Positions 7,876 to 54,793 of a stretch of DNA of 64,000 nt are shown here, in pieces. The notes under the pieces are model-generated. The model had not been told where the DNA came from and made no database searches. It was given only the letters and a program-made list of their open reading frames with translations. The stretch comes from Haliotis rufescens (taxonomy: Eukaryota): positions 62,001 to 126,000 of the forward strand of contig NW_025964190.1 in the NCBI RefSeq assembly GCF_023055435.1, read 5' to 3'. Positions within the stretch are counted from its first letter, which is position 1, and each line of letters starts with the position of its first letter. A program made the translations under genes and the position numbers.

Positions 7876-8211
7876 GCTGTCTGTGTCTCCGCTGTTCACC
7901 CTCAAGCCAACAGCAACGTCAGATTACGATCAAACTTAGTATCTAATCTACACAACTGCCATAGAATCATTCGTGACCAACTCGTGTTATTCCGAGACAA
8001 GCCAAATATTCTTGCAGGTTACGGAAAGGGCCTAGTGGTGACGAATGGATGCATTCGTGACCAACTCGTGTTATTCCGGGACAAGCCGAATCTTCTTGCA
8101 GGTAACGGAAAGGGGCGAGTGGTGACGAATGGTCATGATGATTGGTCAATCTCACTTTGAGGCATAATAATATGAAATATGTTACAAATGGAACTAATAG
8201 GGCATTAAAAG

Positions 8212-10837
8212 TGAAACAGAGTTAGTTTTTACACAAAAACTGATCAAAACCTAGAATGACGTTCGGGGAATTAGCCACGGGATCAACACACCTTCAAAGA
8301 CAAACAGAGAGAGGTTCTCAGGCAAAGCAGGAATTCTTTATTAAATGTTTTCATCATCATCAAGCATATAGACATAATCAGACAATCTTCATCATCACCA
8401 AACACAAAGACATAATCAGACAAATAATTAAGCAGTAATACAAAAACTGTTAAGATATTCGTTGTTATATAATAGTAGGCATGAGTTAATAAACAATTGC
8501 TTGTTATGTGATTTCACTTTGAGAACAATGCATTAACTTCAGAGACGTCTCAGTACCTATTCAAGTTACAGCCTAATATAACATTGATAAGATTACGTAA
8601 CACATTTATAATTAAAAATACCATTTGTAAAATAATAACAAAGTGTAAAGTGTAAGCTCTACTCATTGGATATTTATTTATATCATAGCAGTAAACATTT
8701 GATATAATGCAGACATTATAATCAACTCACATTAAATTACTCATTGATAATTACTCATAATGTTTGATATATATTTAAGGTACTCATAAATTACATCTGA
8801 ACAAAGTTCACAAAAAGCATTCATATGAAAGATTATAACAACACCTTTCTTGAACAATGACATGTCTAATAACTTATTCTACGTTAAATACGGTACATGT
8901 GACGTCATGAACTATAGCTGATTCAGATGTACACTTCAGAGTTAAATAGTGAATACAAGATTTAATACGGTAAATAATAATGGGACCCGCATTCAATGAC
9001 TGAATACACTATACTAAATTCTGAAAACAGCTATGCGCAAAATGGTTAAATACGGTACGTGCCGTCACTGCCGAGCGCTGGTGATTGCGCCGTTATGTAA
9101 CAATGAGAGGTGCCGCCTGTGCATGCCGCGCTATGCGGGCCGAGCTTATACAAATCACACAGACTGAATACCTTGTTTGAAACTTGAAATATATATGAAT
9201 TAAAACTGATTATTAGTGAACATATATTCTATTGTGAATGTTTATGGACCTTATTGGAGATTTCGCTAAAACAGAGAAATTGCTTGTGAACTGTAATTTA
9301 GAAATGGATATAAACACTGCGTTAGGAAAGCCTGTTTCATTATAACTATTCTACAACATAAAACTACTACGTTATCTGTAGCGTCCAAATCATGCTTAAA
9401 GTATAGTATCTGAGATATTCTACTCATCGTCCATTCATCTTACCGAATGGAAATAATATGCATCATTTGGAAAACATAAATTCATTAGGCATTGCTTAAT
9501 TTGCGTGCATTTATCTAGAACAAAAAGTTACGTTCAAGTATTGTAGTCTAGTGATATGCCCTCACAAAGTAGTTACCTAATAAGAAATATATTTTGGGCT
9601 ACAGATAAGAATAATATACTTTGCTGTGCTTGCACTGATCTGGTTTTGTATATAAAGAATATATTTGATGCATGAACATCGGATATAGGTTATATTCTAG
9701 AACCGTATTTATCAGGCATAAGAACGCAAACAAATATACATAACGTAAATGATATCGAGTAACTGGATAATGTTAATGCATATTGACACATTTAACGTTG
9801 TTGCATTATAAAACCACTCTACTAACGATACAGCGTACAATAAGGTAAATAACACGACACACATATGGATACTGGTCCTACCGATACACGGACAAATAAT
9901 TCATACATTATTATAATGCACTCTATTCACATTGAAACATGATAATTATGAAGTATCCACAACATCTGTGATTAATAATCATTTGCCTAGTAGTTTTAAC
10001 CCGATAAATAAACATGTGGGATACGAACGCTGATTGTGGAATAGTAATATTTCTACATCAGACGCACGCATATAAATTACTGTAGTTAATTTGTGTCAGA
10101 AAAACTTGAATGATATGCAGCTTAGATTCGAACGGCATTTCGAATACATAGAGTATAAGTTCATTGTTCAAGCAAGATATTCATACAAAATTAAAGACAA
10201 GTTTAAAAGACAATTTTAAGCAAAGTTCAACCTAAATGGCAAAGTAACAAGTAAAAGCGACTTACCTTCAAAGACAAACAGAGAGAGGTTCTCAGGCAAA
10301 GCAGGAATGACTAACAGTCGATTTCCCCCTATATTTATACCTGAGACCTCCTTTGTTAATCTGAAGGCAAGTCTACATGTGCATGTCCAGTTTGAAATTT
10401 GAGACTTTGGACTAATAAAGACTGGACATGTTATACAATTTTGTATAATGGTTTTGGGCTGTTAATAGCCAAAGCAGACGGTCAGTTTGGAGAGTTGAGT
10501 AATAGAAGATTATAAATGCCGATAGAATCACTCAGCTCATGTTTTGGTTTCGCGTTTTCAATTTTCTAGTTTGGTCAGTTGCCGCTAAATAGCTGATAAC
10601 GGTACACTGGCAAGTGCCGAACGCGCTGACCACTACCAGTTGTTATTCAAGATCTAATTAAAGTTTCGCCCACCGACCTGTTTGTGGCAGCGTAAATCTG
10701 AAGTGCCAGATGTTGTTATACAATTTCTTATTGCTAGTATGTACTGACAGGTCTTAAATGGTTAACCGACAACTTATAAATTGAAGGCGAATTTCACAAA
10801 AAGTTGAATAAAATATAGCAATTTTAGCACTGTTACA
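8212..10837 (-). mobile_element. 2,626-bp solo-LTR-like element with duplicated R-like sequence
   Basis: TG...CA ends with an imperfect inverted repeat (TGAAACAG/CTGTTACA). 4-bp TSD AAAG (8208-8211, 10838-10841); the empty site is visible in sister units (GGCATTAAAGCAAC). On the minus strand: TATAAATA at 10339-10332 and AATAAA at 8342-8337. Confidence 0.8.
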
Positions 10838-11070
10838 AAAGCAAGATCATGTGCCGAACCAAACCAGGATGTTGAATTAGGTGTCGTGGACATAAAAGAG
10901 CACATCATGGCCAACAAAGACATTAGATCTGACAAACTGAATATGACAACAGCAGTAAGTATTTTCCTAAAAAAATCATCTTCCAATCTATTACCTCAAA
11001 GTTAAAGCATTGGATAAGAACGAGAAGAAGTAAATTAAACGTTTTCATAATGTTTTCATTGGTATCTATG

Positions 11071-12119: not shown

Positions 12120-12905
12120 TTCGGCATATACGGTGTCTAACGTAATATGACACCGTATACGGCAACTGAAGACACCATAACGAATTTATTATGCCGAAAA
12201 GTTTACACTATCTGGTATCCATATCACACGTGTCATGTCAAAATGAAAACTTGACACTAACCGTACATGGACGTTAAAGGGTCAAAGGGAGCCTACTCTT
12301 CAAACCTTAGAGGCCAAACCTTGTAGAAAATTTTAACGATAATCTTTATCAATAAAGTCACGAACGTGATCTAAAACACAGATTAATGTCCTTGCACATC
12401 ACAATTTATGATAGTAAAACACAAAAAAAGTGTCAAATAACGAATTTCAGTACCAGAATTTCCATGTGAAATATGAGAGGTGGGTGTTTGAAAATCCAAG
12501 ATGGCTGTTACTGACGGTAAACGGTCTCATATTAGGTCAGTATCAACCATCTTGGATTTTTACTGACGGTATACGGGCTAATGTGGGGTCGGTAGATCTG
12601 CTCTCTGATTGGTCAATCTCACTTTGAGGCATAATAATATGAAATATGTTACAAATGGAACTAATAGGGCATTAAAGCAACATCATATGCCACACCAAAC
12701 CAGGATGTTGATTCAGGTGTCGTGGACATAAAAGAGCACATCATGGCCAACAAAGACATTAGATCTGACAAACTGAATATCACAACAGCAGAAAGTATTT
12801 TCCTAAAAAAACATCTACCAATTTATTACCTCAAAGTTAAAGCATTGGATAAGAATGACAAGAAGTAAATTTAACGTTTTCATAATGTTTTCATTGGTAT
12901 CTAGG

Positions 12906-17819: not shown

Positions 17820-20445
17820 TGAAACAGAGTTAGTTTTTACACAAAAACTGATCAAAACCTAGAATGACGTTCGGGGAATTAGCCACGGGATCAACACACC
17901 TTCAAAGACAAACAGAGAGAGGTTCTCAGGCAAAGCAGGAATTCTTTATTAAATGTTTTCATCATCATCAAGCATATAGACATAATCAGACAATCTTCAT
18001 CATCACCAAACACAAAGACATAATCAGACAAATAATTAAGCAGTAATACAAAAACTGTTAAGATATTCGTTGTTATATAATAGTAGGCATGAGTTAATAA
18101 ACAATTGCTTGTTATGTGATTTCACTTTGAGAACAATGCATTAACTTCAGAGACGTCTCAGTACCTATTCAAGTTACAGCCTAATATAACATTGATAAGA
18201 TTACGTAACACATTTATAATTAAAAATACCATTTGTAAAATAATAACAAAGTGTAAAGTGTAAGCTCTACTCATTGGATATTTATTTATATCATAGCAGT
18301 AAACATTTGATATAATGCAGACATTATAATCAACTCACATTAAATTACTCATTGATAATTACTCATAATGTTTGATATATATTTAAGGTACTCATAAATT
18401 ACATCTGAACAAAGTTCACAAAAAGCATTCATATGAAAGATTATAACAACACCTTTCTTGAACAATGACATGTCTAATAACTTATTCTACGTTAAATACG
18501 GTACATGTGACGTCATGAACTATAGCTGATTCAGATGTACACTTCAGAGTTAAATAGTGAATACAAGATTTAATACGGTAAATAATAATGGGACCCGCAT
18601 TCAATGACTGAATACACTATACTAAATTCTGAAAACAGCTATGCGCAAAATGGTTAAATACGGTACGTGCCGTCACTGCCGAGCGCTGGTGATTGCGCCG
18701 TTATGTAACAATGAGAGGTGCCGCCTGTGCATGCCGCGCTATGCGGGCCGAGCTTATACAAATCACACAGACTGAATACCTTGTTTGAAACTTGAAATAT
18801 ATATGAATTAAAACTGATTATTAGTGAACATATATTCTATTGTGAATGTTTATGGACCTTATTGGAGATTTCGCTAAAACAGAGAAATTGCTTGTGAACT
18901 GTAATTTAGAAATGGATATAAACACTGCGTTAGGAAAGCCTGTTTCATTATAACTATTCTACAACATAAAACTACTACGTTATCTGTAGCGTCCAAATCA
19001 TGCTTAAAGTATAGTATCTGAGATATTCTACTCATCGTCCATTCATCTTACCGAATGGAAATAATATGCATCATTTGGAAAACATAAATTCATTAGGCAT
19101 TGCTTAATTTGCGTGCATTTATCTAGAACAAAAAGTTACGTTCAAGTATTGTAGTCTAGTGATATGCCCTCACAAAGTAGTTACCTAATAAGAAATATAT
19201 TTTGGGCTACAGATAAGAATAATATACTTTGCTGTGCTTGCACTGATCTGGTTTTGTATATAAAGAATATATTTGATGCATGAACATCGGATATAGGTTA
19301 TATTCTAGAACCGTATTTATCAGGCATAAGAACGCAAACAAATATACATAACGTAAATGATATCGAGTAACTGGATAATGTTAATGCATATTGACACATT
19401 TAACGTTGTTGCATTATAAAACCACTCTACTAACGATACAGCGTACAATAAGGTAAATAACACGACACACATATGGATACTGGTCCTACCGATACACGGA
19501 CAAATAATTCATACATTATTATAATGCACTCTATTCACATTGAAACATGATAATTATGAAGTATCCACAACATCTGTGATTAATAATCATTTGCCTAGTA
19601 GTTTTAACCCGATAAATAAACATGTGGGATACGAACGCTGATTGTGGAATAGTAATATTTCTACATGAGACGCACGCATATAAATTACTGTAGTTAATTT
19701 GTGTCAGAAAAACTTGAATGATATGCAGCTTAGATTCGAACGGCATTTCGAATACATAGAGTATAAGTTCATTGTTCAAGCAAGATATTCATACAAAATT
19801 AAAGACAAGTTTAAAAGACAATTTTAAGCAAAGTTCAACCTAAATGGCAAAGTAACAAGTAAAAGCGACTTACCTTCAAAGACAAACAGAGAGAGGTTCT
19901 CAGGCAAAGCAGGAATGACTAACAGTCGATTTCCCCCTATATTTATACCTGAGACCTCCTTTGTTAATCTGAAGGCAAGTCTACATGTGCATGTCCAGTT
20001 TGAAATTTGAGACTTTGGACTAATAAAGACTGGACATGTTATACAATTTTGTATAATGGTTTTGGGCTGTTAATAGCCAAAGCAGACGGTCAGTTTGGAG
20101 AGTTGAGTAATAGAAGATTATAAATGCCGATAGAATCACTCAGCTCATGTTTTGGTTTCGCGTTTTCAATTTTCTAGTTTGGTCAGTTGCCGCTAAATAG
20201 CTGATAACGGTACACTGGCAAGTGCCGAACGCGCTGACCACTACCAGTTGTTATTCAAGATCTAATTAAAGTTTCGCCCACCGACCTGTTTGTGGCAGCG
20301 TAGATCTGAAGTGCCAGATGTTGTTATACAATTTCTTATTGCTAGTATGTACTGACAGGTCTTAAATGGTTAACCGACAACTTATAAATTGAAGGCGAAT
20401 TTCACAAAAAGTTGAATAAAATATAGCAATTTTAGCACTGTTACA
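17820..20445 (-). mobile_element. Second copy of the 2,626-bp solo-LTR-like element (carried by the 9.6-kb duplication)
   Basis: Same flanks and TSD as 8212-10837; offset 9608. Confidence 0.8.
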
Positions 20446-46340: not shown

Positions 46341-47676
46341 GTGAATTCTAAAAAGTTGTAGTGATATGCGAAACACGATGTCATTTAATTTATCATGTGC
46401 CTAGTATTTCGGAAAATTGAAGCATTTAATTCACGAGAATTACGTATTTTGAACATGAGATTAAGTTCACCGTTTGCAAAATCCAGTTTATAAAATAAAG
46501 GATAAAATTGTTTCGGATTTATTCATCGATGTGCGTTTTATAATTACGATTAACTTATCGACCTCCAAACAGAAAAGAGTTGTCAAACCTGTGTTTAGAC
46601 GATCGTGTTTACACGCGAGCAATGAAAAGGTAAACAATGTACTATTTGTTTGATTGTATTGTGATGGCTGCTACATTTATTCATTGTGTTCGCATGTTGC
46701 CCTTTTCGCACGAACTTGATGATGCTTTGGTATTTGTGGCAAATTGAGAAGCACAATTCTTGCTAGGCTTACTGATCGTTGACTTATTGATTGATTTCTC
46801 ATGTTCACGTGTAAGGCTACACGACTGTAGGTGTTAGTTCTTGTGCAGCTCAGTTCTCAGTTTATGCTATATGATAACCTATGTCATCTGCGGAAATTTG
46901 TCTCATTCATTCGTTTTAATCATTTAGTAATTTTGTCGTTTGTGAAACATTTGTTAAGGATTCGGTAATTTGTTTACATACGTACAGCACATATACAATT
47001 AGGACTCATCTCTATTCTATGCTCTATTTTTATTACTACTTATTTGTAATAGAATATTTTTTATGGATTCCGTTCCAACATCTTTTAGAGTTAGTGCAAT
47101 ATATCATACCAGAGACCATATCGGTATATGGCCTCTGATCATACTAAAAGACCTGTTTCCACCTACTAAAAGCATATACGATTTCCAAATTAACAGGCTT
47201 ATATGGGATAAACTGCCCTTGGAAAAAAAATTAGTTTGTTCCAAAATGGTATTTTAAAAATATATTATTTGCTTACTTAAGTGGTATTCTAAACATAAAA
47301 TTGCATTTAATGCTGTGAAAAGTATTCCTGAAAAGCCTCTTCCTCTATTGGTCATGTTATCAGAGATACAAATCACATCGACCAAGACATTAGTATATAT
47401 TATTGTTATACAGATATAAACATGAGTTGGGATAGTTCCTTTTCCTATTTGGGAATTTTTGCTGAAATTTGCTATAGGCTTGGGGCTGAATATTGGTCTC
47501 TGAGAAGGTCTTTGTAAATTCCTGAGTAAACATAATAAATGTGAATAATTCCTTTTCTATTCATTTCCAGAAAGTGTCCTGTTGGAATGCCAGGTAAATA
47601 CAAAGATAGCAACACTAGGACATTGATGTAGGACAATGGCTATCAAGGAGCCATTAGAGTCAAACTAGCGACATCC

Positions 47677-49027
47677 ATGTTCACCTTCCCAGGCAATGTT
47701 GACACGATGGTGTTAGCACTCAACCGATGGAGGAGAACAGCCAGGGGGAAAAAGATACTCCTCATCCTTGCTGCTGGTTTAATCATAGTCATCATCAACA
47801 TCATCTGTGGTGTCAACTTCATGGACGCTCGCTACCCAGTTGACTACAATGCTGATGACGACTCTAATCCTGTTGCCACACTGGACAAAAACAGTGAGAG
47901 CTACATCAGAGAACAACGCCGACGTGAAAGACTCCAGATTTTCCAAAAGATTTTCGAAAAACAGAGTCGTAGGAAATCACAAATCAGTAATCAGACCTGT
48001 CAGCATCCTCACTTGGATTTGAAGCATGATAGCAACAAAGAAGCATTCCATTCTATGCCTCCCTTGAACTGTACTGGGAAGAGCTTGTTTTACTTGCACA
48101 ACCGTGTTGCACGGCTTAACAGAACTGTGCTACAGGGTAAGGAACTTGGCAAGTGCTTGTATTTTGGGATAGAACGAATGACGGATGAATTCTTTACCTA
48201 CACTGAGAGCCTAGAAAAGACAGCACCTCCATATGATCTCATATTAAATCATGACTTTCTGAGGATACAGTGTAACTATAAGAGCACCGAGGAAGAAGAG
48301 AAAAATATAGACTATCCTGCGCAACGAAGACTGATGTCAATGGAATTTAGGCACCAGAAGAAAAATATTCCAAACAGCCATAAAGACATTCATCAAACTG
48401 ATTTGAAATATGATCATGATATACTTGACAAACAAAATGCCAAAGATGTGATACGTTTTTCTCAACAAAAAGCACCTGTCAACAAAAAATCAAATTCTTT
48501 ATTGGACCAATTGAAAACTTGGAATCAATCAGGTACCGGTACTCCACAGGGGGGTCAAGGTCAAGCACGGAAGTTGCTGCAGATGAATTTTGAGGAGGGT
48601 AAAGCTGGGGATGAGTTAAAGGAACCGATGAACGGCGCCGGCGACATCATGGCGCCATTTCCAGGGGGAGACTCGGACCAGTTTAATCCCGGGATGGGGC
48701 CGGCTCTAGACGACAGTGAAGGATTTGACTACCAACATTTTATGGGAGCTGAATGGAGTGATAAAGATTTTGATCAGTTTCTTGTTCAAGTTGTTCCAAA
48801 GCAAGAAGTGTTTGATAGAATCACCAAAGCTAAAGCCAAAATGACGAAGCCTTCGTCCAATATGAACATCCTCATTCTAGCCATGGATTCCATGTCGCAG
48901 TTGTCCTATCAGAGGAAACTGCCACTGACGTATCGATACCTGAAGGAGGAGCTAGGGGCGACTGTGCTGGACGGCTACAATATTGTTGGTGATGCTACAA
49001 CCGCCGCTCTCATCCCCATGTTAACAG
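47677..49027 (+). CDS. DUF229-family (alkaline phosphatase/sulfatase superfamily) type II membrane protein, first coding exon
   Basis: N-terminal signal anchor (ILLILAAGLIIVIINIICGV); NILILAMDSMS and GYNIVGDATTAALIPMLTG; phase-1 donor G|GTGAGG; upstream acceptor at 47570. Confidence 0.88.
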
Positions 49028-49162
49028 GTGAGGCCAACATTTTATATGAGGGTCGTCTGGACCAGACAATCCAGTGATTGATATCATGAGTATCGATCCA
49101 CGCAATTGGGATCGATGACATGCATCAACCAAGTCAGCGAGCCTGACCACACAATCCCGTTA

Positions 49163-49626
49163 CAGAGCTCCAGATAAGCTTTTGGTGTTGTGGGTATTTT
49201 ACCCATGCATTTTAAAATCATTGGGTAGCAGTAATTCTATCTGGGTATTCAAATTTCTGTTACCCACTAGTTTTTACACATGTGGGTATTTAAATTAAAT
49301 ATTTAAAAACACTATTCATCTAGTCCCTGCAAACTGGTGTCATGTGGGTTGAGAGCTTTATAGGACTCAAAAATACCAAGAAAGTGTGATGGCAAATGAT
49401 CATGATGTAACTGTCATCGTTCAAAATAAGTTGCTGATTTGCTTATCGAATACGCAGCGTTACCATGGGTTACTTCGCAATATTTTGATGATACGCACAA
49501 GTTTTAATTTTGTAGCGTATCTGTAATGTTCGTTGCGTATTTGATACGCTTGGATTTTATTTTACTGCATATTTCTGCATTTCTGATGCATATTTTACGC
49601 AGATATGCAGCTTATCTGGAGCTCTG
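49163..49626. mobile_element. CAGAGCTCCAGATAAG MITE
   Basis: TIRs at both ends; homologous to 37116-37612. Confidence 0.85.
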
Positions 49627-50459
49627 ATATGAGGGTCGTCAGTGTGTGTGTTACAAGTCAGTTCTGTTCAGTAGTCAGATAAATTTGGGGTCTTTAGTCA
49701 GTAGTCAGTATTTTTTCGGTAGTTGGTTAAAAATAGCCATTTCTAACCGTGAGCAAGCTGTCAAGATGAATCTAAGATGGGGAATCATCTCGGAATATCA
49801 GTCGGTAGAGAAACATGGGGACAGCTGATTCTGCTTTTGTTTCCCTACTGCAGACTCGTGAAGATACGGGTAGAATAGGTCTTCAGCAACCCATGTTTGC
49901 TGTAAACAGCGACTATGCTTGTCGTAAGAGGCGACTAAGGGGATCGGGTGGTCAGGCTCGCTGACTTGGTTGATGCATGTCATCGTATCACAATTACATG
50001 TACCGATGCACATGATATCATGTGATATCAATCACTGGATTGTTTGGTCTAGACTTGATTATTTACAAACCACGGTCATTTAACTGGAATATTGCTAAGT
50101 GCGGTGTTAAATAACAAACAAAACAAACAATTATCTTCATGATCTTTGACCCAATTTATTATCGTATTTTTCCGGTATTCTCCTTTAAAACAGAGTTGAC
50201 CATGCTTGTCGTAAGTGGCGACTAACGGGATCGGGTGGTCAGGACGTGATGGGTCTGTATCATGCCTAGGTTTGAAATAGGAGATATCCTCAAATTTGAA
50301 AATTGTTTATGAGTTCTGACCTACGTACCTTAAATTCTTGGGGATTCTGTTCGTATGGGGGCGGTTCACACCTGTTCTGTCATTAGGTAAATCTTTCCAC
50401 AAGTTAGTATTAAGGAGTTATTTTTCCTTGCTTGAACAGAAGTGCTTGATGAGATGCAA

Positions 50460-50705
50460 GGAGCACGGGTGGCCCAATCATCTAAGTTGTTTCCCTTGGG
50501 CATGCTAGAAACCTGTGGGTTCGAATCCAGGCTCCCCCCGATTATGTTTCTAGGCTTGTCAGCACCATACCCGTGCTCGTGGGTTTCACCGAAGTGGTAA
50601 ACGTCTGAGACCTGCATCACTTAGGGCTTTCCTCCCACATTAAGCTGACACGCTGTGATATAACTGGAATATTGTTAAAAGCGGCGTTAAACCCACTCAC
50701 TCACT
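50460..50705 (+). mobile_element. SINE family C
   Basis: A and B boxes; TSD CTTGATGAGATG. Confidence 0.8.
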
Positions 50706-51817
50706 TGATGAGATGAGGCGACTATGCTTGTCGTAAGAGGCTACTAACAGGATCGGGTGGTCAGACTCGCTTACTTGGTTGATGCATATCATTGTATCCC
50801 AACTGCGTAGATCGATGCTTTTGATGTCAATCACTGGATTGTCTGGTCCAGACTCGATTATTTACAGACCGTCGTTATATAGCTGGAATATTGCTGACTG
50901 CGGCGTTAAACAACAAACAAGCAAAATATGAAGCAGAAATGTGCGTCCAGTACACACAAATGTATAGAATGGACACAGACAAAATAGTTTTTATGTTAAT
51001 TATACCAAATTCTTGACAAAAAATATATAGGTCCTGTAATTAAAGTAATTATAAAATCTTACAGTACAATACACTTCGCCGTTTTCTCACTTTACAGGAC
51101 CCTCATATTTGTGTAAAATACCCCCCAAAACTATTCAAAACCCAATTTCAATTAACTTGCGTACAGAAACGCATAAATGAAATGAAAAACTCAATTGTTT
51201 GAAAACAGCACGCGTAAATGCTCAATGAAGCTTTTTCAACATACGTACAACAAAGCTAATTTCCGAAACAATTACGAGTTAATTTACTTTCCGAGTCAAG
51301 CCTATGTTTAAACCGTTATATATATCTGAAAAACTATTTCATTTTTTAAAAATCTCAAAATGTTCACTCAGTTTGGGAAAAACCCAATAGAGTGATGAAT
51401 AGATGAGTGAAAAAAGATTGGTTACCCAACGAAAAATGTAATAACCCAATTAAAATAGAAACCTTCGAGTAAAAACTCAATTGCTCAAAAAATTATCTGG
51501 AACTCTGGTCATATTTCCTATAAGAACTAGCCTAGTGGTTAAAGCGTTCGCTTGTCATGCCAAAGACTTGGGTTCGATTCCCGACATGGGTACAACGTAT
51601 AAAGCCCATTTCTGGTGTCCCGTGCCGTGATAATTGCTATAATATTGCTAAAAGCAGCGTAAAACCATACTCACTCACTAAGAACTAATTAATATATTAA
51701 TCAATTATTGGGAATCCCCTGGACCTGAATTTTGTAAGAAAAGGTAAAACCACAGTGTGTTGAAACTAAGGGCAATCTGACCTGGCATCACTGTGAAGGG
51801 GTGTTGCTGTGTTGCAG

Positions 51818-51987
51818 GCAAGACGGAGATGGAGTTGCCGGAGGTACGGAAGGACGAGGAGGATGCCAACTTCCTGGACGTGTACCCCATGGTGTGGAAC
51901 CGCTTCAAGGAGGCTGGCTACGCCACCATGTACGCCGAGGATGAACCCTCCATCAGTACCTTCAACCTGCGCTTCAATGGATTCCAG
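51818..51987 (+). CDS. DUF229 gene, coding exon 2
   Basis: GKTEMELPE...YPMVWNRFKEAGYATMYAEDEPSISTFNLRFNGFQ; phases 1 and 0. Confidence 0.9.
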
Positions 51988-52020
51988 GTGACATGACAGC
52001 CTATCCGACACACAAGGAAG

Positions 52021-52181
52021 GGGGCGGTCGGGTAGCCTAGTGGTTAAAGCGTTCGCTCGTCACGCCGAAGACCCGGGTTCGATTCCCTCATGGGTACTAT
52101 GTGTGAAGCCCATTTCTGGTGTCCCCCCGCCATGATATTGCTGGAATATTGCTAAAAGCGGCGTAAAATCATACTCACTCA
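52021..52181 (+). mobile_element. SINE family A
   Basis: Full length; TSD CACAAGGAAG. Confidence 0.85.
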
Positions 52182-52689
52182 CAAGGAAGGGATTACCGTA
52201 TTCGACGTAATAGGTGCCCATTAAAAATAGAGGGCTCTTTTTAGAATATAAATTTTGTGCAAAAAAACAGACTTGAAAAAAATGAAAGATCATAAATTTC
52301 GTGGTTTATGCTGACAGCCTGAAATTTTACAAAAGAAAGGTCTGTGTGTATTATACACGACAGATATATTTTTCCAGAATTTAATTGCCCATATTTAAGG
52401 GTGCATATAACATGTATAACACACAAGTGCGTATTATACACGAATAAATAAGCCTTGTGTACATTGATCAATCGGAAGGGGTTCTAATTGGGATTGTTCA
52501 CAAGCCAGTATACACGTATTAGCAAATATCGCTGTGGGAGCTTATTAGAGTGGGGCGCTTATTGCGTCGAATACGGTATGTATCATATCAAACACTGATT
52601 ACAAGTTCACAAGTTGCAAACTGTTTATTGTTTATTAGTTTTCACATTTTGATCTATCTTTGGTGGCACGTGGTCCTGTGTACAGCGTA

Positions 52690-53074
52690 CAGATCACAAA
52701 TCAGGTGAAGTTAAGTCGGAGAGTAGTTGGATGGGTGACCACGTTGAGCAGCTTGACACCTGAGAGTTTCTAGGGCTTCGGTCCTGCCCCCACACTGAAG
52801 CACATGTACCACGTGTGGCGTCTCCTTGGACAAGTGACTTTGTTCGAAATGTGCCTCTGTTCACCCAGCAGTGAGTGGGTACCCGGTAGGATGAGATGGT
52901 AATGTGACTGTTGACCTTCTAGGACCTTACGGGCAGCTTTGGGTTGTATACTCCCCAGGGAGCTGAGAATGAAAATCGAGTGCTCACTGATCCGTTGACC
53001 GGGGTAATAATGTAGCACTTTGAGCATGAATTGCTGCATGGAGACCAGCGCGTTATAAGTGCACATTATTATTA
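52690..53074 (+). mobile_element. Probable SINE with 5S-like head remnant, CORE-like body and L2-type (ATT)n tail
   Basis: GAAGTTAAG...TTGGATGGGTGACC (5S box A/C-like); CTTGGACAAGTGACTT...CACCCAGCAGTGAGTGGGTACC; 3' end GCACTTTGAG...GCGTTATAAGTGCACATTATTATTAT. Confidence 0.5.
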
Positions 53075-53526
53075 TGCCTGGGGTCTGCCGGATTGGTTCT
53101 TCTAACTTGAAACAGTCTGGTGATAGGGCTGAGTCTGAAACATTAGCTAACTCAATAGTCCAACAAACGGTTTAATGACAGTGCCTTCAGAGCCTTATGA
53201 AGTATGATACGTGTTGCGATACGATACGTATCCTTATGCTATAGGTGTGTATCATTTGTGTAGAGTTGTATCATCGAGTTTACTCATGTATGAGTTTACA
53301 AGATGGTGACTGGCCGGTCAGGCAGAGATTTTATGACGCTTAATTGTAATAATGTTTCAGGGACTTGGGTGGCCCAGCAATTCACTCTAGTTGTCCACGT
53401 CTGAGTGTTTTGCTCACTCGTACCAAAAATAAGGAAGCCTTGGTGCTTACTGGCTGATTAGAATCTTCGCCTGGCACAACCTGTGCTGGAGTGTCATCAG
53501 ATATTTTTGCAGAGAAGTATCGTATC

Positions 53527-53909
53527 TACGGAAGCCTTTTAGAGCCATTTGTCTTTTTGGTTTTTTTCTTGAAATTTCAAGGTACTCACTTGAAATTTCA
53601 AGATGCTGTGTTAAAATTTCAAGATGCTAAGTTGAAATTTGAAGATACATACCGGTTTGTTGAAATTTCAAGATAATCATCTTAAAATTTTAAGATAATA
53701 AGTTGAAATTTCAAGATAATGATCCTAAAATTTTAAGATATTAAGTTGAAATTTCAAGATACTAATTTGAAATTTCATGATATTAACTTGAAATTTCAAT
53801 TTTTCTTGAATTTCAACTTAGTATGTGTCTTGAATTTTCAAGTTAGTACATGTATCTTGAAATTTCAAGAAAAAACAAACAAAACAAATGACCCTAACAG
53901 GTTTCCGTA
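53527..53909. mobile_element. MITE with internal 21-bp tandem repeats (TTGAAATTTCAAGAT)
   Basis: Inverted ends TACGGAAGCCT / AGGTTTCCGTA with an internal palindromic repeat array. Confidence 0.65.
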
Positions 53910-53976
53910 TGTGTCAGTGTGAAAGATCAGATTTTATTGAGACTGACTCAGCAACTTATTTTCTCCATGTTTTCAG

Positions 53977-54750
53977 GAATCCCCCGCTGACCACTACATG
54001 CGGCCATTCTGGCAGGCTATCTGGGAGTCCAGCCTTCGTTCACAGAGTCCGCGGTACAGCACCGGCACCACCCCTCACCACATCTACCTGCTGGACTATC
54101 TCAAAGACTTCTTTGTCAGCTACAACAATGTGTCGAGGTTCGCGTTCGGCTTCAGCGTGGAACTCACCCACTGGGACAACGACCCTGGAGAGTACATGGA
54201 CAGAGATCTTGTAGACTTCCTGCAATTTCTTCAGAAGAAGGGTTACCTTGACAACACAATGCTTGTCGTCATGGGCGACCATGGCGCCAGATACAGCAAG
54301 GTGCGGAATACGGTGCAGGGAAAGCTTGAAGAGAGACTCCCAATGATGTCGCTTGTGATGCCAGCGTGGTTTCTTCACGAATATCCACAAGCTAAAGCAG
54401 CTTTAAAACGGAACAGCAAACGTCTCACAACACCGTTTGATATTCATGAAACATTTTTAGATTTGTTGAATCTGGAACGATTGACGGTTCCCATTAATCC
54501 AGAACAGAGAGGGATGAGTGTTCTGAGAGACATTCCCAATAACCGGACATGTGCTTCAGCCAGAATAGACATCCATTGGTGCTCTTGTCTTCATCAAGTG
54601 CAGGTCAACCTGGAGGATAAGTTTGTTATGACAGCGTCCGAGGAGGTCGTCAACTACATCAATGGGTTGACAAGGAAACTTCGTGGCAACTGCACGGAAC
54701 TAAGTCTCAAGAGAATATACACTGCTTACATGGTGTTGCCTAATGAGAAG
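53977..54750 (+). CDS. DUF229 gene, coding exon 3
   Basis: ESPADHYMRPF...ELTHWD...VMGDHG...EERLP...TPFDIHET...HWCSC; acceptor TTTTCAG, donor AAG|GTAGGT. Confidence 0.92.
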
Positions 54751-54793
54751 GTAGGTTGAAAAGTCTGACAAGGTTCCTCATAGTGCTGCCGTA

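Follow-up and report, generated by a model that had tools for sequence, protein, structure and literature searches.

The window, a stretch of 64,000 nucleotides from the genome of Haliotis rufescens, carries a solo LTR in which a short sequence, r, is present twice, as r1 and r2, at the two ends of a predicted intron. The layout of this LTR has been confirmed as real and is conserved in nine families of one genome. The arrangement of its sequence elements makes it probable that the LTR holds a spliceosomal intron that survives reverse transcription by means of a first exon duplicated at the intron's 3′ end. Two independent DNA signatures, namely, the covariation of r1 with r2 and the variability of the junction before r2, likely back a spliced genome that rebuilds its intron. 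With more reserve, we lean toward the broader proposal that an entire env-bearing animal lineage packages a spliced genome and regenerates its 5′ intron in each cycle, with the exon 1 duplicate as the strand-transfer site.

The lack of introns is taken as a hallmark of reverse-transcribed DNA. If the proposed reading is true, this lineage breaks the rule, and one short sequence would be first exon, acceptor, poly(A) element, and strand-transfer site at once. A reverse-transcribed element would then pass for a host gene with introns in its export and translation and in evading the surveillance of intronless RNA; vertebrate HUSH spots invaders by their lack of introns, according to the available text of PMC8770142. 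The lineage would also have a fourth way of telling the 5′ from the 3′ LTR, beside the three by which retroviruses keep their RNA from terminating in the 5′ LTR (PMC3694450, available text). Families whose RT sequences diverge by as much as 35% retain the layout, even though a single step suffices to lose the intron. Both U3-R-U5 annotation and splice detection fail on such LTRs because the spliced junction equals genomic DNA.

Anatomy of the solo LTR in the window

The element has TG...CA termini, a 4-bp target duplication on each side, and two-LTR relatives in the genome, in agreement with the original prediction of a solo LTR. The minus-strand positions given there for the TATA box (10339), the TCATT with its A at 10308, r1, GTAAGT, AATAAA, r2, and the CA end all hold. 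The claimed identity of r2 with r1 extends over 45 nt, including the next GT, and what had been described as about 1.9 kb of AT-rich DNA without a long reading frame has 53 codons as its longest ATG frame between r1 and r2. An empty site, paralogous to the insertion, is found near 12674. The features are as follows.

8212–10837, minus strand: solo LTR, 2626 bp; the same sequence bounds two-LTR elements elsewhere in the genome
10838–10841, minus strand: upstream copy of the target-site duplication CTTT (flank comparison)
8208–8211, minus strand: downstream copy of the target-site duplication CTTT (flank comparison)
10309–10837, minus strand: putative U3, promoter side; TATA at its end, U3/r1 border nearly invariant among copies
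10332–10339, minus strand: TATA box, TATAAATA from 10339, 31 nt before r1
10266–10308, minus strand: r1, predicted 43-nt first exon without ATG, starting at the predicted cap site
10260–10265, minus strand: predicted splice donor, AAG/GTAAGT (AAG/GTAAG in nine of nine families)
8292–10265, minus strand: predicted intron, 1974 nt, 32% GC, no long frame, about 60 ATG triplets
8337–8342, minus strand: AATAAA poly(A) signal directly before r2, within the predicted intron
8335–8336, minus strand: spacer between AATAAA and r2, hypervariable among copies; predicted strand-transfer junction
8292–8334, minus strand: r2, identical to r1; putative acceptor formed by a pyrimidine tract and the final AG
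8212–8291, minus strand: U5, 80 bp, predicted start of exon 2, ending in CA
17820–20445, minus strand: second solo-LTR copy with 2 differences and the same flanks, a product of a 9.6-kb tandem duplication

The 45-mer of r occurs 91 times in the genome at ≤3 mismatches, 68 of them exact, against 0 for a control pattern. This recurrence, together with the same layout in eight other families, shows that the arrangement is not due to chance; on these grounds, and because the intron is usual among copies, a one-off duplication or insertion is rejected. A spliced-leader or other RNA gene was likewise considered and dropped: there is no Rfam match below E 0.1 in 8000–11000, and the unit is an LTR.

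In the mechanism that we propose, transcription would start at r1. The cap-proximal donor of the 5′ LTR would be spliced to the AG ending r2, which would leave a short r-U5 leader of about 145 nt to the gag ATG and remove the r2 poly(A) site together with all intronic ATGs. In the 3′ LTR, the RNA would be cleaved inside r2, before this AG, which would leave the intron behind in the 3′ untranslated region. The minus-strand strong-stop DNA, made of U5 and r1, would jump to the partial r2 at the RNA 3′ end and copy the intron, r1, and U3; each new LTR would again read U3-r1-intron-r2-U5, with r2 rewritten from r1. The sole AATAAA of the window family and its sister, lying in the intron, would be spliced out. 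The seven other families have a further AATAAA in r1, which the nearby cap and the neighboring donor would silence, in the manner of HIV-1 and foamy virus. Through the cap-binding complex and U1, a cap beside exon 1 would likely promote splicing from the donor of the 5′ LTR; in the 3′ copy, the pyrimidine tract and AG of r2 could double as a downstream poly(A) element, and the predicted cleavage inside r2 would remove the AG.

The element family and the conservation of its layout

The solo LTR belongs to a Ty3/gypsy family with a chromodomain and an F-type env. Across the 1.33-Gb genome, 40 candidates were scored, and these contain 53 matches to the LTR. Seven candidate pairs were examined, of which three are rearranged and four are clean two-LTR elements with 4-bp duplications and LTR pairs that are 99.9–100% identical. 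The full-length elements that the original prediction called for thus exist as two-LTR copies with gag-pol, some with env. The C135 element encodes gag (412 aa), pol (1468 aa), and a third frame (795 aa), the C190 element retains two LTRs with the third frame deleted, and the C1 and C594 elements have 1.4-kb non-autonomous interiors. At L025, L027, L042, and L092, non-autonomous elements have in common a 1.4-kb interior that joins three segments of the full element; one of these elements has both LTRs intronless.

By Pfam, pol is ordered as protease, RT, RNase H, integrase, and chromodomain (PF00385, E 3.6e-9); the gag match is weak (E 0.035). Gag and pol share one frame, interrupted by one TAG. 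The 795-aa third frame matches Baculo_F (E 2.3e-18), that is, an F-type env after pol, and env is absent from some copies and families. The env frame of the window family is without a start codon of its own and begins at an acceptor-like pyrimidine tract and AG (L021:8990–9020); similar acceptor-like sites precede env in four other families, and a search for a conserved upstream donor with an ATG for env found none.

In the full-length copies, a PBS-like TGGTGGAG, altered in families F6 and F9, follows the LTR, and the gag ATG lies 22 nt beyond the LTR. None of the host tRNA loci fetched matches this PBS-like sequence, and the polypurine tract position before the 3′ LTR holds only a short purine run. 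Self-priming of the Tf1 type was rejected, as no complement longer than 5 nt joins the 5′ end and the PBS in eight families. A TAATTCCCC motif (window 8263–8273, minus strand) is kept in the U5 of seven families, F2–F7 among them, and of one distant element. We take this motif to be complementary to the 5′ end of alanine tRNA; if so, it would give, with the short PBS, a two-part primer binding.

The comparison across families drew on 20 RT-related places (51–88% identity) and 10 further regions of the single genome of Haliotis rufescens. Among the 20 places, the r1/r2 layout was found in 10, both LTRs were short in three, and three had no usable pair; the two most distant elements (51–52% RT identity) have no duplicated r. 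Later inspection found the layout in the three places first without a usable pair and in four of the 10 added regions. The layout-bearing elements, 65–100% identical in RT, sort into nine families including that of the window, and one natural LTR per family was compared.

All nine families have a TATA box 28–32 nt before r1, with one having a TATA box near that spacing before r2, the donor AAG/GTAAG after r1, and a pyrimidine tract and AG at the end of r2; a branch-like motif lies 19–30 nt before the AG in eight. The introns range from 664 to 1974 nt and from 28 to 35% GC, and align between families over only 41 nt of one pair. A coding role for them was rejected, given longest ATG frames of 40–70 codons in the nine families and shared sequence of at most 41 nt. 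Within one LTR, r1 and r2 are 0–2 letters apart, and their identity spans the predicted cap site to the donor; between families, r is 42–79% identical. The leader read through the intron of the C135 copy holds 63 ATGs and the spliced leader none, and four of eight families have one ATG in r-U5.

AATAAA stands 12–18 nt inside r, in both r1 and r2, in seven of the nine families, and just before r2 in two. In the window family, r1 lacks AATAAA and the signal is 1.9 kb from the donor; in the seven sister families, the poly(A) signal of r1 is close to it. In a tree of copies from this genome and seven database proteins, the two families with AATAAA before r2 form a clade (96/94) nested among the others. 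The window arrangement, with AATAAA solely in the intron, is thus the derived state of two sister families. The original prediction that splicing excises the poly(A) signal fits these two of the nine; as the purpose of the design, it is too narrow, because AATAAA within r leaves one copy in exon 1 in the other seven. The motif UGUA occurs 16 times in 540 nt before r2 (7.7 expected), 2 times before r1, and 0 times before r2 in the window family; this enrichment is suggestive only. Donor masking of the U3-dependent foamy type was rejected: predicted pairing has no consistent change on addition of U3, and the donors are predicted to be largely base-paired. Searches for relatives elsewhere returned 0 loci in viral contigs and 6 loci in metagenomes.

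Putative signatures of strand transfer and competing explanations

Covariation was assessed in 64 distinct LTRs of four families, with identical LTR copies collapsed. Sixteen variants are common to r1 and r2 of the same LTR, against a mean of 4.6 and a maximum of 12 in 2000 rounds of r2 shuffling; they represent only seven distinct sites in related copies, and hence carry no clean probability. The window family alone has one shared variant, a value reached by 194 of 2000 shuffles. Variants confined to r1 (21) or to r2 (20) are equally common and give no direction. Several elements have an r1-only variant in each of their two LTRs, such as those at L120/L122, L128/L129, and L130/L131. Of the proposed check on whether the two copies stay identical and covary, the second half is borne out within and between families, and strict identity is seen in only 37 of the 64 LTRs. 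The between-family pattern of r1 and r2 is stronger evidence of covariation than the shared variants within families.

The same LTRs carry a distinct mark at the intron/r2 junction. In the three bases preceding r2, 58 of 192 sites carry differences; the bases farther up carry 46 in 1536, and those preceding r1 carry 6 in 192. G stands at position −1 in 25 of 64 LTRs before r2 and in 0 of 64 before r1. Family F7 has no such excess of G (0/13), and the spacer after AATAAA in the window family ranges from zero to several bases. For MLV and HIV-1, C-to-G changes at −1 are attributed to read-through of the cap in minus-strand transfer in the available text of 10.1101/2024.12.04.626847. The variable, G-rich bases thus indicate that the copied RNA has its 5′ end where r2 begins; the TATA spacing and the covariation point to r1 as the place where this end is made. 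Splicing would be the simplest way to join the two. In the earlier account of splicing and strand transfer, the part that has fared well is the rebuilding of the LTR through r, with the error signature of strand transfer at r2 and covariation of the two copies; its stated purpose of poly(A) excision is what proved too restrictive.

Intron-bearing LTRs are the rule, as members with the 1.9-kb segment and second r had been expected to be. By exact patterns, 35 of 38 U3-r junctions in the window family continue into the donor, and three of 38, together with seven of 51 in family F5, run straight into U5; families F6 and F7 were left out of these counts since the pattern also catches r2. Looser inspection adds three more intronless junctions in the window family. 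The deletions are precise, and in the window family they also remove the AATAAA before r2, the sole one near either r copy. In the tree, intronless copies are tips inside three families, indicating that loss is repeated and that the intron nonetheless persists. In one element, the 5′ LTR lacks the intron and the 3′ LTR retains it. Two intronless F5 elements are mutual nearest neighbors in U3, with 2–3 differences, which argues that the intron is not strictly essential; intronless forms may still be mobile. Intronless DNA copies were rejected as evidence of splicing, as the same product can result from r1/r2 recombination, from a jump to r1, or from a splice within the 3′ LTR.

Spliced r1-U5 RNA is letter-identical to r2-U5 DNA, and contigs thus cannot reveal the splice junction. 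No run recorded as RNA was found to hold the stretch; four of 24 listed runs were compared by contigs only, three presumed to be RNA (two studies) and one presumed to be DNA. The three presumed RNA runs cover the intron about 43- to 170-fold, with depths of 13, 9, and 0 at the intron/r2 border compared with 181 in the presumed DNA run, and in one of them a contig of 138-fold depth runs from the r2 end into gag. As a weak hint from runs presumed to be RNA, this pattern is compatible with RNAs that end within r2 and with others that enter U5 separately. In the same presumed RNA runs, U3 is covered as deeply as the intron, so that transcription of these RNAs seems to come in from upstream instead of beginning at r1. 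No splice junction, cap site, or poly(A) tail turned up in these contigs, there is no loose poly(A) end among the matches listed, and the expressed LTR alleles are assignable neither to the window copy nor to any other single copy. A 747–1076 joint in run X1 was rejected as splicing because a copy in the genome has the corresponding deletion. Runs X1 and X2 each contain a contig of high depth (138- and 194-fold) that exits gag at L021:4273 into unrelated sequence; none of the 40 candidates scored in the genome ends there.

Three other readings account for part of these observations. Splicing might yield only a Gag/Pol messenger, with an unspliced, packaged genome bearing a 2-kb R. The splice signals and the ATG-free spliced leader are equally compatible with this proposal, and HIV-2 offers a model in the available text of PMC3315320: a 140-nt intron in the R-U5 leader of its full-length RNA, removal of which raises Gag translation, the spliced RNA being kept out of particles. 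HIV-2 differs, however, in having no duplicated exon, and here the spliced RNA appears to be the copied genome. A messenger alone has no need for a duplicated r, would not lead one to expect private variants common to r1 and r2, and predicts the strand-transfer signature at U3/r1 rather than at intron/r2, where it is observed; we consider this reading unlikely. Transcription might also start at r2, in an LTR with AATAAA in U3, a short R, and r1 with the spacer as a mere U3 duplication. The resulting RNA would be letter-identical to the spliced form, which explains both the junction signature at r2 and the contig pattern, and AATAAA just before r2 resembles the first mechanism listed in the available text of PMC3694450, where the poly(A) signals of RSV, MMTV, and HTLV-1 lie in U3 and are absent from the RNA 5′ end. 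The outcome in the window family would be the same, with a mature 5′ end lacking AATAAA and a short terminal redundancy, but those viruses never transcribe the signal at the 5′ LTR, whereas here it would be transcribed and then spliced out. The signal of the window family would not lie upstream of the start, as in the RSV/MMTV type, if transcription begins at r1, as the TATA spacing implies: the right distance is found before r1 in nine of nine families and before r2 in one. The perfect donor after r1 in all nine, the AATAAA inside r2 in seven, and the fact that nothing would hold r1 equal to r2 during family divergence leave a start at r2 very improbable.

The remaining possibility is that the donor only binds U1 against polyadenylation, with no splicing, and that DNA recombination or template switching maintains the likeness of r1 and r2. 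Suppression through U1 is an established mechanism in HIV-1 and foamy virus (PMC3694450, available text), whose LTRs have a strong donor beside a poly(A) signal in R, as does r1 of seven families; r1/r2 recombination is also real, as the element with one intronless and one intron-bearing LTR attests. Those viral LTRs, however, carry a single R and lack an acceptor within the LTR; in the present families, a further poly(A) site lies 0.7–2 kb off and would be spliced out, and the window r1 has no AATAAA. At 0.7–2 kb from the donor, the r2 signal is poorly placed for a suppression that the same text describes as distance-dependent, the leader would carry 13–63 ATGs, and recombination would not end precisely at the cap site and the donor of all families, or generate the G-rich variation ahead of r2. 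We regard U1 binding alone as a highly doubtful account and retain an intron that is spliced from the genome and rebuilt through r as the preferred one.

Related elements and genomic surroundings

The element family fits the chromodomain errantivirus clade of Cnidaria, Mollusca, and Annelida described in PMC13524379, a likeness by domain content that, in the available text, comprises a gypsy pol with a C-terminal chromodomain, an F-type env, and a weak PBS match. Among the mollusc entries with LTR coordinates seen in that source, four of five with a chromodomain have an LTR of more than 1 kb, compared with 0 of seven without. Its main text, as available, has no "splic," has "intron" solely in the reference list, and gives no LTR anatomy; the available text of PMC3601003 is without "splice." No description of the LTR design was found in the literature searched, in which subscription journals were mostly uncovered. 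The element appears to be a new member of a known group whose LTR design appears undescribed.

Three LINE-like inserts, all 5′-truncated (2529, 4353, and 66 bp), share one insertion site in this LTR family, where an 11-bp duplication stops a single base short of r1. They lie in L028/L029 (G000:C57 near 9053920), L038 (C223 near 5678465), and L034 (C605 near 19057157), are of two kinds 80% alike, end in TAAG-repeat tails, and include endonuclease- and RNase H-like frames as judged by eye. Their common site suggests a preferred target at the predicted start site.

Both solo-LTR copies of the window lie in a tandem array of GIMAP (AIG1) genes (3046–27316), in which units of 1836 bp are duplicated within the 9.6-kb blocks; some units have an intact frame of 415–416 codons and others are frameshifted. 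One frameshifted unit has its stop position about 230 bp ahead of the solo LTR, on the same strand, and could obtain its poly(A) site from the LTR. Further along the window, exons of a DUF229 (sulfatase-like) gene occupy 47632–54759 on the plus strand.
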